Part shown: piece after piece, positions 8,385 through 32,878 of the stretch
Layout: each line of letters starts with the position of its first letter
How positions within the stretch are numbered: the stretch's first letter is position 1
Assembly (NCBI GenBank): GCA_963817955.1
Contig: CAWFQK010000003.1
Coordinates: 96,001-160,000, forward strand
Source: an uncultured Gemmatimonadaceae bacterium
Lineage (GTDB): Bacteria > Gemmatimonadota > Gemmatimonadetes > Gemmatimonadales > Gemmatimonadaceae
Reading direction: 5' to 3'
DNA: 64,000 nt
Notes under the pieces: model-generated
What the model saw: the letters and a program-made list of their open reading frames with translations, nothing else
Told to the model about the DNA's origin: nothing
Databases searched by the model: none
Position numbers and translations under genes: made by a program

Positions 8385-8417
8385 AAATAAAAACGGCGCA
8401 TCTTTCGATGCGCCGTT
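8385..8417 (-). terminator. Intrinsic terminator of rnpB (possibly bidirectional)
   Basis: 11-bp stem aacggcgcatc/gatgcgccgtt followed by a T-rich tail on the minus strand. Confidence 0.8.
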
Positions 8418-8418
8418 C

Positions 8419-8804
8419 GTCGCGAGTCTATAAGCCGGGTTCTGTGAGACGAATTGCTTCGTCCCGGTGATCATTCCTCTCCGAGCGTAGTCGCCTACGC
8501 TCTCTAGCAGCCTACCCGCAGCGTCTTGGTCGAGGTGGGCACCTCTCGCTGCCTATTTGGCCTTGCTCCCGCTGGGGTTTACCCTGCCGCGGCTGTTGCC
8601 AACCGCGCGGTGAGCTCTTACCTCACCATTTCACCCTTACCGAATCCGAGGATTCGGCGGTGTATTTTCTGTGGCACTTTCCGTCGTCACTCGGCCGAAG
8701 CCGACAACGCCCAGGCGTTACCTGGCAGCGCGCCCAATGGAGCCCGGACTTTCCTCGAGCGGTGTTCCCAAGAGATCACCGATCGCGATCACCCGACTGG
8801 CGAC
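8419..8804 (-). ncRNA. rnpB: RNase P RNA (bacterial type A)
   Basis: Minus strand has GAGGAAAGTCCGGGCTCC near the 5' end, AGTGCCACAGAAA, GGTAAACCCC, and ACAGAACCCGGCTTAT at the 3' end; termini pair as P1. Confidence 0.97.
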
Positions 8805-13890: not shown

Positions 13891-14064
13891 CACCCGCCTC
13901 CACGAAGCGAGCTCCCCTGCACCCGCCCACCCCCATGGCGGGCGGTGCTGTTTTCGCGATGGGGAGATGGGGGCGGCGAATCAGAGGGTTGAGGGTTGAC
14001 CGTGTGCGGTGGAGCTTTCGGCATGGGCACAATGCCCATCGCCAAACGTCCATCGCCTATCGCA

Positions 14065-22272: not shown

Positions 22273-22424
22273 GCGGTTGGAGGAGATCCGAGGCGAAAAC
22301 CTCATCGCGGCGTGGGCCAGGTAGGGTTCAACGACTCGACATTCATGAGAGTATATTGATCGGTGCGGTGGCAAGAATAGTCGAGGCGGGTCGGCACAGA
22401 GTGGTCAAATTGACTGGTTTTAAG

Positions 22425-22860
22425 GCCGCGATGAAGTGTTCAAATGCCGCGATGAAGTGGATGAATGCCGCGGTCGACTGAGCAAATGCCGCAGTCGACT
22501 AATCATTTGCCGCAGTGAAGTGGACGATTGCCGCGGTCAAGCAGGCGCGTGCCGCTGTTAAGCAAACGTTTGCCGCGATCAAGTGGGCGGGTGCCGCTGT
22601 CGAGTGAGCGTTTGCCGAGGTCGATTGATCGAATGCCGCAGTCGACTGAGCGTTTGCCGCAGTCAAGTAGACAATTGCCGCGGTTAAGCAAACGTTTACC
22701 GCGGTCAAGTGGACGATTGCCGCGGTCGCCTGAGCGCTCGCCGAGGTCCCCTGAATGTTTGCCGAGGTCGAGTGGACGCTCTCCCAGGCCAAGTGGACGG
22801 TCTCCCAAGCCAAGTGGACGGTCTCCCAAGCCAAGTGAGCGCTCTCCCAAGCCAGCTGGA
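22425..22860. repeat. Degenerate tandem array, exact 21-bp period, 20 full units plus one partial
   Basis: Units start every 21 bp from 22425 (GCCGCGGTCAAGTGGACGATT-like); the last four shift to TCCCARGCCA. Confidence 0.95.
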
Positions 22861-24169: not shown

Positions 24170-24350
24170 GGAAGGGTGTGTGCCGACGGGTGACGATCCC
24201 AGAAGCATCCGTGTACGAAGGCGGCGCGCGAGTGATCGGCCGAGACGATGTTTAGCGATCCGGGGATGCCGTGTACGTCGATCGGGAATTCGTGTGCGCT
24301 GTCGCGGGGCGGCAACCCATCCTGAGCACGCTCATGAGTTTTCTGTCCGT
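24170..24350 (-). pseudogene. Remnant of very-short-patch repair endonuclease Vsr
   Basis: IPGSLNIV.....AAFVHGCFWDRH matches the Vsr signature (LPG.PD.V...FVHGCFWH.H); both ends lost. Confidence 0.6.
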
Positions 24351-24654
24351 TTCTGCATGCTACGCTGCGAGCGCACGCAGCGTAGCGACGGAGGTGCCAT
24401 TGCACATCGAGGGGTAAGCGGTTCGGGCTGCGCAACTTCCAATACTGCGATCTCATCTGTCGTCGGTGCTACGCTGCAAGCGTCGCGATTGTTTTGTGCG
24501 CACCTGCAGCGTATAGTGACCACCCACTTAGCGTTGAACTCAATCCGCCTGCGGCGGATAGCCCCGGCGTAGATTCCGCCGTGCCTCTCACGGGGTGATT
24601 GCCCGTCGAGACTGCGTGCTGTCAAGTCCTCTCGACCTTTTCAGAGAGGATTGT

Positions 24655-25062
24655 ATGACAGCCCTTCGCCGCCGGATGACCGAGGATCTCCAGCTTCGCG
24701 GCTACGCCGACCGCACGGTCGCGGCGTACCTACTGGCGGTCTCGCAGGTCGCCAAGTTCTACCGGACCGCGCCCGATCAGCTCACCGAGGAACAGCTCCG
24801 CGACTATCTGCTCCACCTCACCACCGTTCGGAAGATCGCCGCGAGCAGCTTCACGCAGACCCTGTGTGGCCTCAAGTTCTTCTATGAGGACACGCTTGGC
24901 CGCCATTGGCCCGTGCTCGACGTGGCGCGCCCGAAGCGCGAGGCCCGACTGCCAGTCGTCCTGAGTCAGGAGGAAGTCCGGCGGGCGCTCGCGGCGGTGC
25001 GGACGCTCCAGTACCGCGTCTGTCTGACCCTCATCTACGCCTGGGGCCTCCGGCTGCTCGAT
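24655..25062 (+). pseudogene. Tyrosine recombinase, N-terminal part only
   Basis: MTALRRRMTEDLQLRGY..RT..AY SAM-like domain, LPVVLSQEEV, IYAWGLR; HxxR and catalytic Tyr region absent. Confidence 0.88.
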
Positions 25063-25742
25063 GGCCATCCGCATATGCACCTCCTCGCGACCGCGGCGGC
25101 CTCGCGCCCGACGGGCAGGCGTGGGTCAAGCCTGCCCATGCACGATTCCTCATGCCCGGCTACATGCTGTCGGAACTCTTCCGCGCGAAGATGCGGGACG
25201 CCCGGACGCAGGCCGGCTTCGCGGACCAGATCGCGCCCACGGTGTGGGACCGCCGATGGGTGGTCCATCTCCAACAGATCGGGCGCGGCGACCATGCCCT
25301 GCGCTATTTGGCCCGCTACGTCTTTCACGTCGCCCTCACCAACACGCAGCTCGAGCGGTTCGACCACGGGCGCGTCACCTTCCGCTACACCCACGCGCGC
25401 ACGCAGGAGACACGGCATCTCACCCTCCCGGTCGACGCCTTCATCGCGCGCTTTCTCCAACATGTGCTGCCGCGCGGCTTCACGAAAATTCGCTACTACG
25501 GACTCCTGAGCCCCGGTTGCCGAGCGAAGCGCGACCGCGCCCGCCTCCTCCTCGAGCTCCACACCGCGCCGGCCCCTCGCCCAGAGCCAGGGCCGGCGGA
25601 CGCGCGCATCACCAGGACTCCGCTCATCAGGACTCCGCCCACCAGTGCCGTCCCGCGCCCGACGCGACTCCAGTGTCGCGCCTGTCAGCACGGCCACCTC
25701 TACCTCATCGAGCGCGTCGACCGACCGCGCGCCCCGCCATGA
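25063..25742 (+). pseudogene. IS91-family rolling-circle transposase, C-terminal part, frameshifted near 25093
   Basis: HPHMH (HUH), then in another frame WVV, YLARY, FLQHVLP.GF.KIRYYGLL, CxxC, terminal RAPP; N-terminal zinc domain missing. Confidence 0.88.
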
Positions 25743-26037
25743 CGCGCTTGGTTCGGTCAACAGGCTCGGATCAGGGATCGGCAACGGTGTCGCTCGCGCC
25801 GCCGTCCAGCCATGCTGCACCCTGCCCCGACGTACCACGTCTTGCACCGGGTACATCGGCACGGACCCGCGCTCACCCGCCGCCACTCGGCGCCTTCGCC
25901 GAGTCGCGCGCCCCCCTCGGCTTACGATATTCGCGTCGCGCGCGCATTCTGGCTCCGTAGATCCTCGCGGCGGCGGTCCCCATCTCGCTTGAAAGTCCAA
26001 AGGGCTGGGTCACTCCCGCCCGTCACGCGCGGATCGA

Positions 26038-26094
26038 GTTCAACTGGAGATTTTGCCGCGGCTTCGCGCGGCACGAATCTCTACTGCGTTATAT
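26038..26094 (+). other. attC-like site fused to the right end of the IS91-like element
   Basis: GTTCAAC then stem tggagattttgccgcg/cgcggcacgaatctcta, then ctgc GTTATAT; left spacer missing. Confidence 0.6.
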
Positions 26095-26159
26095 GGCCAT
26101 CGAGTTCCTCGAAAAACGCCGCGCTTGCAGGGAACTGCGAACCGGAGCAACTTTCAGCT

Positions 26160-26363
26160 ATGACTGATCGGCCCAATATCAAGGCTGACGCCCGCGACCT
26201 CGTTGACCATCTCCCGGAGTCGGCCACGTGGGACGACCTCGCCTATGAGGTCTACGTCCGGCAAGCGATCGAGGCCGGGCTCGCAGACTCGGACGCAGGA
26301 CGGACTCTCTCGCACGACGAGGCGATGGCCCGCATTCGTAGTCGGATTCGTCGCGCGTCATGA
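26160..26363 (+). CDS. Antitoxin of a RelE/ParE pair (cassette-borne)
   Basis: LPESATWDDL.YE.YV.Q.IE.GLAD..AGR..SH.E; ATGA overlap with the toxin. Confidence 0.85.
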   Translation: MTDRPNIKADARDLVDHLPESATWDDLAYEVYVRQAIEAGLADSDAGRTLSHDEAMARIRSRIRRAS

Positions 26364-26659
26364 CCCTTCCGCTCCGGTGGACGGAGCGCGCGACCGAGCA
26401 GCTCGGCGCCATCGCGGAGTACATCAGTATCAGCTCACCGGTTTATGCCGATCAAACGGTCGAGCGGATTGTATCGCGGCTTCGCCAGGCGCAGGCGTTC
26501 CCCGAGTCCGGCCGTCGCGTGCCGGAGATTGCCGCGGTCGACGTGCGCGAACTGATCGAGCCACCCTATCACCTCGTGTATCGCGTGCGCGACACGGCGA
26601 TCGAAGTTCTTGTCGTCATTCACAGTCGTCAGAACCTCACTGACATCGTGCCAGGCTAG
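26360..26659 (+). CDS. RelE/ParE family toxin
   Basis: WTERA..QL..I.EYI, FPESGR.VPE, RELI..PY.LVYRV, V.HSRQ. Confidence 0.92.
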   Translation: MTLPLRWTERATEQLGAIAEYISISSPVYADQTVERIVSRLRQAQAFPESGRRVPEIAAVDVRELIEPPYHLVYRVRDTAIEVLVVIHSRQNLTDIVPG

Positions 26660-26674
26660 TTCCGTGTGGTGGCC

Positions 26675-26796
26675 ATATAACGAACGCTGAACTTGACGAG
26701 TTCTGCATTCGGCCGGTCGTGGCGCCCGTTGGCATCGCGCACTAGTCTTTTGGTATCGAGCCTAATCGGGCTCGCAAGTTAGCTGGGGCGTTCGCC
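26675..26796 (+). other. attC site (122 bp)
   Basis: ATATAAC gaacg CTGAACTTGACGAG ... CTCGCAAGTTAG ctggggc GTTCGCC; arms pair with two unpaired bases; cassette ends 26088-26099 and 26670-26681 are 12/12 complementary. Confidence 0.88.
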
Positions 26797-28708: not shown

Positions 28709-28802
28709 GGCTAACAACCATTGGAGCAACCGGGCGATTTAAGGATTGCGCATGCTGCGCGCTCTGATTTGGTTCGCGCGCAGCTCAATTCGGACGTTCT
28801 AT
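28709..28802 (+). other. attC site (94 bp)
   Basis: GGCTAAC aacc ATTGGAGC ... GCTCAAT tcggac GTTCTAT with an extra G in the left arm; GCTGGCTAAC is 9/10 complementary to GTTCGCCAGC at 26790. Confidence 0.8.
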
Positions 28803-28859
28803 GAGAGTGATCGTCAAGAGCGCACTTTGTGCCCGCTGATCGTTTTCCCTTTTGCTTCT

Positions 28860-29060
28860 CGGCGATTGGCCCCGAAACAACGCCTTGAGCCGCTGCATCA
28901 CGCGAAACGCGACGTGGACGGAGCCACGCATGCCGCGGAACCAGTCCACGATCGGCGCGGCCTCGGTGGGCAAGATGGTTCGCGCGAGCACGCGTCCTGT
29001 CTCCTCTCGCACCGTCTTCACCGTCGTTGCCCGGTGCACATCGAGCCCGACATACTTCAC
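28860..29060 (-). pseudogene. IS110-family recombinase remnant
   Basis: KYVGLDVH N-terminal DEDD motif; jumps after VAF to R.MQRLKALFR.G, then ends. Confidence 0.75.
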
Positions 29061-29141: not shown

Positions 29142-29375
29142 ATGGGTGATCCGGCGTTCAATTACCACGACCTTCCAATCCCCGAGCGGGTGAAGCTCGT
29201 TGAGGACATCTGGGACAGCATCGCCGACGAGGCCAACGCTCGACCAGACTCGCTCCCCATCTCACCGGCCCAGCGCGCGGAACTGGAGCGTCGGGCTGTG
29301 GACGCTGACGCGCATCCGGACGAGGCGATTCCTTGGGAGCAGGTGCGCGATGAGTTGTTTCGGCGCGGCGGGTGA
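29142..29375 (+). CDS. Addiction-module antitoxin (TIGR02574-like)
   Basis: L...ER..LVE.IWDSI...Q.AEL.RR......P....PWEQVR. Confidence 0.88.
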   Translation: MGDPAFNYHDLPIPERVKLVEDIWDSIADEANARPDSLPISPAQRAELERRAVDADAHPDEAIPWEQVRDELFRRGG

Positions 29376-29584
29376 CGCCGCGCTTCGTCTTTCATCCCGC
29401 GGCGCGCGCCGATCTACGCGACGCGCGCGACTGGTATGAGGCGCAGCGGACGGGCCTCGGCCGTGAGTTTGGCGACGTGATCGCCGCTACGCTCGACCGG
29501 ATCGCCCCACATCCCGAGGCCTATCCGGATGTTTTGGGCTCGCTGCGCCGCGCCGTGCTCGCGTCCGAATGGGCGTCGCGCTGA
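29372..29584 (+). pseudogene. RelE/ParE toxin, C-terminally truncated
   Basis: FHPAA..DL..A.DWYE....GLG.EF; homology stops after RRAVL, before the FPY..Y segment. Confidence 0.8.
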
Positions 29585-32107: not shown

Positions 32108-32416
32108 CTAGAACGCCATGTCCTCATCACTCGCCGTCTGGCGGTCCTCCTGCCGACCGTGGCGCACGGTCAGAATCAGGATGCGCGCGCGTTCGACACG
32201 ATAGATGATCCGATACGGCGGATATGGGACTTGCCGAATCTCAGGCCGAGCGAGATCTGGCGCGACGCGCCCCGACAGTGGGTATTGCCGCAATTGGTGA
32301 ACGCGGGCGAAGATCTCCCGGACCCACCGAGCCGCGGTGGTGGGCCGTTCCCCCGCGATCTCCTGCGCGATCGCGTGCACGCGCTCCAGCGCGAGCGGCG
32401 ACCACACAACGCGCAT
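32108..32416 (-). CDS. RelE/ParE family toxin
   Basis: VVWSPLA, YPLSGRVAPD, PPYRIIYRV, VRHGRQ. Confidence 0.92.
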   Translation of the reverse strand: MRVVWSPLALERVHAIAQEIAGERPTTAARWVREIFARVHQLRQYPLSGRVAPDLARPEIRQVPYPPYRIIYRVERARILILTVRHGRQEDRQTASDEDMAF

Positions 32417-32443
32417 GCGAGGGCTCAAAACGCCAGCGCCGGA

Positions 32444-32752
32444 TCAGGCAGTGCGCTTTCGCGCGTTCCCCGGCGCGCGCAACCGCGCCAACACCAGCGC
32501 CTGGGCCTTGCCGTGCGCGACGCCCTGGCCGGCGGCGAGTTGGGCTTCAGCCACGCGGACATCCTCGGCCAATTCGGCGCGCTCCACGAGCGCCTCGTAG
32601 GCATCGACGGCCAAGAGAATGGCGGCGCTGCGGCCGTGCTGCGTCAACACCAACGGGCGCTGGGTGGCCTGCACCTGCTCAACGAAGGTGGCCACACTGG
32701 CGCGGAACTCGGAGAGGGGGCGGATATCCTGACTGGGTCGGCCGTTGCGCAT
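32444..32752 (-). CDS. Phd/YefM family antitoxin
   Basis: DIRPLSEFRA...RPLVLTQHGRSAAILL..DAYE. Confidence 0.92.
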   Translation of the reverse strand: MRNGRPSQDIRPLSEFRASVATFVEQVQATQRPLVLTQHGRSAAILLAVDAYEALVERAELAEDVRVAEAQLAAGQGVAHGKAQALVLARLRAPGNARKRTA

Positions 32753-32767
32753 GAAGCCTCGATGCAT

Positions 32768-32787
32768 ATTGTACAAGGGAATGTACA
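32768..32787 (-). promoter_or_regulatory. YefM-type operator overlapping the -10 element
   Basis: TGTACA at 32770-32775 and 32782-32787 (12 bp centre to centre); TACAAT on the minus strand at 32768-32773. Confidence 0.75.
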
Positions 32788-32878
32788 AGTGGCGCGCACC
32801 GCTGTCCAGCGTGCGAAGAGGCAACGGCCTGCGCGAGCGCCGACGCATGGGTTGGTCCGTCCGTGGCGACCCCTCGCG

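Follow-up and report, generated by a model that had tools for sequence, protein, structure and literature searches.

A defective IS91-like element with cassette-like ends at the head of an integron cassette array, and the likely role of a recombinase in the movement of its relatives

Background

We take the elements of this study to be the catalogued members of the IS91 family that carry an integrase gene upstream of the transposase gene (ISShvi3, ISWz1 and others, following the ISfinder grouping). ISShvi3 has been seen beside an attC in one paper, and circles flanked by ISWz1 are reported without a mechanism in the available part of PMC11322121. The role of the recombinase in these two-gene elements appears to be undescribed. 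In the literature outside ISfinder and the subscription journals we found no description of it or of the ends discussed below, and the available parts of PMC7923331, PMC11023631, PMC6563490, PMC10288648, PMC5737581, PMC8876359 and bioRxiv 10.1101/2023.11.06.565760 hold nothing on either.

Two described systems are close enough to serve as references. In IS91 itself the ori and ter cuts have fixed positions, next to a tetranucleotide that is also fixed, according to the accessible part of PMC13181058. For the attC sites of integrons, the accessible part of PMC5027507 gives spacers of 5-6 nt and extrahelical bases on the L'' arm. The insertion in the catalytic domain of IntI is described, in what is available of PMC8138268, as not fully conserved in an integron-like subgroup yet essential for integron function.

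Results

Extent and decay of the element

The window, which denotes the whole 64,000-nt stretch of DNA analysed, contains a two-gene mobile element (tyrosine recombinase and IS91-type HUH transposase) at 24534-26088, present as a deleted and frameshifted copy. Its features are as follows. Crossovers are marked by a slash throughout.

24533..24548, + strand: left end, terminal arm of an asymmetric inverted repeat (GTT and GAAC box), with the same start in relatives
24543..24559, + strand: short left-end hairpin (fold z -2.4), by analogy a terIS-like subterminal palindrome
24655..25056, + strand: IntI-like tyrosine recombinase, N-terminal 134 codons, catalytic C-terminal half deleted (PF13495; 67% to an intact relative)
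25057..25742, + strand: IS91-type HUH (Y2) transposase, C-terminal part, zinc domain deleted (PF04986, NF033538)
25066-25080, + strand: HUH motif of this transposase fragment
25989..26002, + strand: conserved motif 5' of the inner repeat, candidate rolling-circle origin, with a related motif in relatives
26029..26044, + strand: inner (subterminal) repeat arm ending GTTCAAC, from repeat comparison
26045..26088, + strand: the element's own terminal stem-loop and spacer, with the right crossover G/TT at 26088/26089, from copy comparison

An initial annotation had described 16-bp terminal inverted repeats. The repeat is real (GTTGAAC at 24533 against the inner right arm ending GTTCAAC at 26044, 15/16 with 1 mismatch, also found as a 20/25 match), but it is asymmetric, with a terminal left arm, a subterminal right arm and a hairpin beyond the latter. 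The right end had accordingly been placed too early at GTTCAAC: the last base of the element is 26088, beyond the stem-loop. The candidate origin at 25989..26002 presumably resembles the oriIS of IS91.

Between the arms, Pfam finds a Phage_int_SAM_4 (PF13495) fragment and a Y2_Tnp (PF04986) fragment. Compared with the intact relative L011, about 970 bp are gone near 25056, which fuses recombinase codon 134 to approximately transposase codon 152; 3' of the deletion, near 25093-25100, there is also a frameshift. The copy is unable to encode either enzyme and is dead, as the annotation's description of it as defective had it. With NF033538 (cut-off 125) the transposase fragment scores 134.1 bits and an intact relative 356.5. 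Internally deleted derivatives are also found at L009, L048 and L049, all with the right end kept and L009 with both ends; like the window copy, these are possible non-autonomous elements.

The attI-like site and the cassette array

The surroundings of the element have the following features.

24317..24533, + strand: attI-like site with upstream spacer, crossover G/TT at 24533/24534, no intI adjoining; copies align to G/TT
C4:1374576-1374800, C4:479730-479949, C1:48750-48868 and C3:192037-192108: other attI-like copies, each heading an array
26089..26796, + strand: next cassette, with an antitoxin-like ORF (26160-26363), a ParE toxin (26360-26659) and a host-type attC (26675-26796)
28709..28802, + strand: another host-type attC in this array (model R1, 55.9 bits; outside the training set of R1)

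The 131 nt 5' of the element share 86% identity with the sequence that immediately follows the intI of this genome, whose only full IntI is encoded on another contig, C4 (TIGR02249, 414.6 bits). The five attI-like copies of the genome can be aligned up to G/TT and diverge beyond it, and host-type attC sites lie behind each; the element is therefore the first unit at an attI-like site, with the integrase in trans. A conserved segment that stands beside intI, ends at G/TT and is followed by cassettes can be regarded as a putative attI, here with intI absent at the window locus. GTTGAAC at 24533, previously read as an attC core site, is thus present at the named position but belongs to the crossover of an attI-like site. 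The two attC sites downstream confirm that the element heads a cassette array.

Several other observations were made in this region and genome. There is one intI to five attI-like copies, the orientation of intI is that of its cassettes, and multiple attI copies also occur in genome G141. Three toxin-antitoxin pairs lie together in a 7-kb part of the window (26160-26659, 29142-29584 and 32108-32848; ParE with addiction-module, Phd/YefM and unnamed partners), the second ParE being truncated. Right behind the attC at 28709-28802 is a remnant similar to the start of a transposase (28785-29060, - strand, and 28795-28810), with no Pfam match, which we take to be of the IS110/IS1111 type; the same downstream start stands behind an attC at C4:1397077. 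The main array has 32-nt attC-like sites lacking the inner stem (L220:4018-4049 and 13915-13946). About 20 tandem 21-bp repeats, with low-complexity ORFs on both strands, are located at 22404-22860, 5' of an MFS gene. An Rfam scan of the window returned RNase P only (RNA of class A, 8415-8804, - strand).

The right-end hairpin belongs to the element

The stem-loop is followed by GTTATAT (26088-26094), and the initial annotation had noted this layout as a right end running into an attC that lacks its 4-5 nt spacer. If so, the element would end at GTTCAAC, and its insertion would have hit an attC of the host, with the spacer deleted or displaced. GTTCAAC does fit RYYYAAC, and what comes next is a hairpin whose core is GTT. 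However, in order to define the end we compared copies, and the hairpin is identical behind every copy, with different sequence past G/TT. A second remnant in the same genome (C4:488326-488831, 85.6% over 542 nt) has the same stem-loop and then a different cassette; a third remnant is degenerate. Copies in class-mates (4 in G240, 7 in G141) all have their own shared stem-loop and diverge after G/TT or G/AT. As the stem-loop is common to all copies while the flank changes, the hairpin is part of the element, which ends at G/TT (26088). The copy comparison thus refutes an end at GTTCAAC inside a host attC, and we give insertion of this kind hardly any credence. The layout that had been noted is there, but it is not a host attC minus its spacer.

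The hairpin is also unlike the attC family of the host. We built covariance models R1 and R2 from 15, then 40, attC matches of this genome and its class-mates, training R2 without element-adjacent sites; given this origin, misses in other phyla are weak evidence. With R2 the hairpin scores 5.8 bits (E 8.5), and neighbouring attC sites score 47 and 67 bits. Its spacers are 0-3 nt on the 5' side versus 4-7 nt on the 3' side, and it has an unpaired base on the arm opposite L''. It is not a canonical attC but a structure of the element itself. GTTCAAC pairs with the GTTGAAC of the element's own start, and such R''/R' boxes are found in this clade and not in many relatives. Extended complementarity by itself does not single out the element: a perfect 12-bp repeat (26088-26099 / 26670-26681) belongs to the cassette that comes next.

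Distribution and enzymes of the family

Relatives were found in 22 of 401 genomes of the class, and at no fewer than 24 metagenome loci, at least 80 genome loci and 27 viral loci; the viral contigs gave no exact left-end match. The right-end pattern, searched phylum-wide, occurs in 7/401 genomes; in G521, G108 and probably G137 it seems to be a chance match. One member of the integron-associated clade, L057, is in an archaeal (Methanoperedens) assembly.

The intact transposase has about 390 aa and the domains Zn_Tnp_IS91 and Y2_Tnp only, and no match for it was found in the PDB. A recombinase gene lies directly 5' of 93 of the 100 transposase starts with enough flank, and its catalytic motifs are complete in 80/87. 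Its best matches are TIGR02249 and IntI4 (2A3V), with 209 and 213 bits against TIGR02249, below the cut-off of 265. The IntI-specific insertion in the catalytic domain is absent, as seen from an alignment gap and from a motif distance of 61-82 aa in 51 element enzymes versus 102-104 in two IntI. Since this insertion has been called essential for integron function, hairpin recombination by the element enzyme is putative. In a tree with 3 IntI rows and 4-6 outgroup rows, from which the long row L145 was left out, IntI and the element recombinases stand together against the Xer/RIT outgroup (99 SH-aLRT); the support for IntI being sister to or inside the element enzymes is 25.

Architecture of the ends

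We collected 91 elements with the left-end motif, of which 68 passed the end-quality thresholds and 23 were dropped, leaving 58 distinct right ends. The inverted layout is kept family-wide among these 58, contrary to one of the refuting conditions that the initial annotation had named. The repeat arms co-vary: positions 1-3, which were unused in site selection, pair at 0.84/0.76/0.71 within the same element versus 0.39/0.41/0.44 in foreign pairs, positions 4-16 being biased by selection. When the ends are joined, the bottom strand is the better-folding one in 54/58, and the left hairpin is present in 55 of the 58 relatives. A motif 10-70 nt 5' of the inner arm occurs in 50/58, versus 13/58 in a control interval. 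At each core position 29-38/58 have the base of GTT, and many proteobacterial members have other bases. The suggestion that the element mimics a cassette is well borne out, as it runs from G/TT through its own hairpin to G/TT, with co-varying ends conserved across the family.

A variable left dinucleotide

In genome G424, 11 copies with 0.0000 internal differences per site have 7 different left dinucleotides, that is, the two bases before the GAAC/GGAC box. There are 7 kinds among 9 copies in G438, 3 among 4 in G420, and 2 each in G413 and G437; the dinucleotide is constant (TT) in G240, G141, G433, G418 and G414. This count leaves out G427 (2 loci), L033 (no left end), L195 and 7 of the 15 G438 loci. 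Two of these seven do not align to the left end, and the other five (L183, L185, L191, L192 and L193) have another element, which we take to be IS110-like, inserted at one position within the left end. Variation of the left dinucleotide among otherwise identical copies is a new observation.

The base or bases before the left dinucleotide are identical on both sides in 57/62 copies (in G420 only 1/4). Past these shared bases, both sides vary in G424, G438, G420, G413 and G437. Where one side alone is variable (G240, G418, G433), it is the right one in every case, which suggests that the right dinucleotide is probably the target's own and the left one carried. The left dinucleotides are found among the right ones in 16/21 cases (null mean 13.4, p 0.06). 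No empty target site was found for G424; three candidates in G438 are compatible with either dinucleotide being the target's. Locus L054 has the left end both at its start and at its finish, and folds well (z -3.9). The end-to-end junction was seen in none of 4 runs examined out of 24 listed, so that it may be an assembly overlap.

These results bear on the possibility that, like its counterparts in IS91 and Helitron2, the HUH transposase needs no partner for cutting and joining and recognises the repeats and hairpins as its signals; the recombinase would then be an accessory for multimer resolution, regulation or excision. On its bottom strand the left end has GTTC next to a palindrome, like the terIS of IS801 and IS1294, and the HUH and Y2 residues (two tyrosines) are invariant in 18 aligned transposases. 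In the available text of PMC13181058, IS91 moves via a circle of the bottom strand and causes no duplication, and Helitron2, with HUH only, has short asymmetric terminal repeats and two hairpins in that of PMC3627910. However, fixed ori/ter cutting predicts an invariant left end. The two varying bases among identical copies are not explained by such cutting of the IS91 kind and fit a strand exchange. The right end, moreover, has no constant tetranucleotide behind it in G424 or G438, and none of the 7 exceptions among the 100 transposase starts is an intact recombinase-free element with a left end. We consider a transposase acting alone rather unlikely.

Targets and the relation to IntI

In order to assess whether the element targets attC hairpins, as had been proposed together with a search of homologue flanks by attC models, we searched the left flanks with R2. 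An attC ends at the left end in L009, L011, L015, L053, L055 and L056, which is 6/49 of the searched GTT-class copies and 0/33 of the copies with non-GTT ends. All six copies are inserted backwards at R'', an orientation disfavoured by IntI according to the available part of PMC5027507. They fall in or close to one 14-row clade (97 support) that includes the nearest relatives of the window element. There, 7/11 copies with flank are at integron sites: the window copy at attI, and the six just named, backwards in attC. The exceptions are L059 and three copies in G240. A heuristic score of at least 7 was reached by 10/50 GTT-class and 5/34 other left flanks versus 9.7% of 1574 controls, and a score of at least 8 by 3/50 and 3/34 versus 4% of controls, with a finder that overlooked evident attC sites (L011, L015) and was noisy in its genome-wide version. 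The heuristic gives no clear family-wide enrichment. Targeting of attC thus holds for one clade only.

Other members have other surroundings. In G433, 8/12 copies (L161-L165, L167, L170, L171) share a single insertion point within another IS-like element, together with which they may spread. Alphaproteobacterial members (L200-L209, L180-L194, L060-L133) are inserted in short GGGTC/GGCC...GCGG palindromic repeats, often found several times nearby; the repeats may represent a hairpin-target or cassette-like system, as yet undescribed, of hosts that lack IntI. Head-to-tail tandems occur at L096, L186, L206 and L207; at L206 two different element families form an exact tandem in which the end of one family is the target of the other.

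IntI was matched in 13 of the 59 element-bearing genomes, with no match in the other 46. Genomes with no IntI match include G240 (closest clade, 100% complete) and G424, G433 and G438, with 14-50 element matches each; a completeness figure is given for G240 alone. Spread in such genomes argues that IntI is not required. The initial proposal that the recombinase may act in arrays without IntI thus appears sound for the movement of the element itself, but the window array has an IntI in trans.

The same counts bear on the alternative of a passive gene cassette, with the host IntI as the enzyme that moves it and a hairpin that is no more than an odd attC. This may explain the one placement in the window, first behind attI in a genome with an intact IntI. 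In G141, 4/7 copies are behind attI-like sequence (by inspection), one of them 207 nt behind an intI fragment, and IntI tolerates the loss of extrahelical bases at some sites in the available part of PMC5027507. Yet the hairpin scores at background with the attC models, has spacers of 1-3 and 6-8 nt instead of 5-6 nt, and keeps the same layout with non-GTT cores, with as many as 50 matches in single genomes that gave no IntI match. A passive cassette is quite improbable as a general account.

Discussion

The explanation that we favour, with some confidence, is that the window holds a defective copy of a cassette-like element whose intact relatives likely copy themselves out by HUH and integrate with their own IntI-related recombinase at a G/TT-type site. 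The HUH protein would make a single-stranded circle of the element, and the recombinase would integrate it, in the window at an attI. The joined ends would form a bottom-strand hairpin acting as the recombination site, with an outer stem from both repeat arms, an asymmetric bulge, and an inner stem. One strand exchange would take place between the shared base or bases and the next two, as at the AA/C of IntI, leaving the target's two bases on the right and the carried bases on the left. For circle formation the cut would fall at another place, behind the GTTC that the left end has on the bottom strand (the tetranucleotide found at terIS in IS801 and IS1294), so that flank bases are sometimes picked up. 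Two distinct positions, one for leaving (HUH) and one for entering (recombinase, at the IntI position), fit two enzymes. With GTT as the core of this clade, the integron simple sites (attI, attC R' and R'') are usable as targets. Under the explanation we favour, the element would be a parasite of the arrays and not their integrase.

A further-reaching reading is that the IS91-like elements with a recombinase form a class of their own, very widespread and consisting of self-copying cassettes (an HUH initiator with its own hairpin-integrating recombinase) and that IntI/attC arose from one of them by domestication, the enzyme gaining its insertion and the end hairpin becoming attC. We hold this to be unlikely.

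The element family is known; its cassette-like ends and its probable recombinase-driven integration are probably undescribed in the literature searched. The window copy is dead, and it is the family that is of value. With ends known exactly, a junction fold that is defined and a scar of strand exchange, the proposal can be put directly to the test by assays already in use for integrons and IS91. If true, it would explain a parasite of integron arrays, add a second hairpin-recombining tyrosine recombinase that lacks the insertion of IntI, offer a candidate sister or source of the integron system, and link two known mobility systems (IS91-type and integron).

Comparison with known systems

With the IS91 family (IS91, IS801, IS1294) the element shares a Y2 HUH transposase above the NF033538 cut-off, a GTTC-type tetranucleotide and palindrome at the upstream end, a favoured bottom strand and no long target duplication. 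Unlike IS91, which has no terminal inverted repeats, its distinct ends share a co-varying 15-16-bp repeat. It also differs in a long terminal hairpin beyond the ori-like motif, a conserved catalytic tyrosine recombinase, and a variable end dinucleotide with 1-2 shared bases and no fixed tetranucleotide behind the right end.

Compared to integron cassettes, this clade has the same anatomy of G/TT, AAC, hairpin and G/TT, a bottom strand that folds better, and insertion at the attI crossover, and the recombinase is nearest to IntI. Spacers of 1-3 and 6-8 nt, a hairpin without an extrahelical base in L'' that scores at background as attC, and the non-GTT core of many relatives set the ends apart from attC. 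The enzyme differs from IntI in lacking the insertion and in being carried inside the unit.

Helitron2, in the available part of PMC3627910, likewise has an HUH enzyme, a terminal left arm with its own hairpin and a subterminal right arm just 5' of a hairpin. The present element is prokaryotic, has no fused helicase (Helitron2 being a RepHel) and has a tyrosine recombinase. In CTX phage and IMEX, and with the coupling sequences of Tn916-type elements, an HUH-made single strand, a tyrosine recombinase acting via a folded site, tandems, and short non-matching bases that are carried along are also met. Here the recombinase is the element's own and not host XerCD, the targets are many and not dif, there are two genes, and the carried stretch is 2 nt and not about 6. 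Single-exchange integration of CTX is mentioned in the available part of bioRxiv 10.1101/2023.11.06.565760. Finally, IS1111-attC elements and group IIC-attC introns are likewise parasites inserting at attC, often backwards, as described in the accessible part of PMC9229058; they use other enzymes and bring no attC-like end with them.
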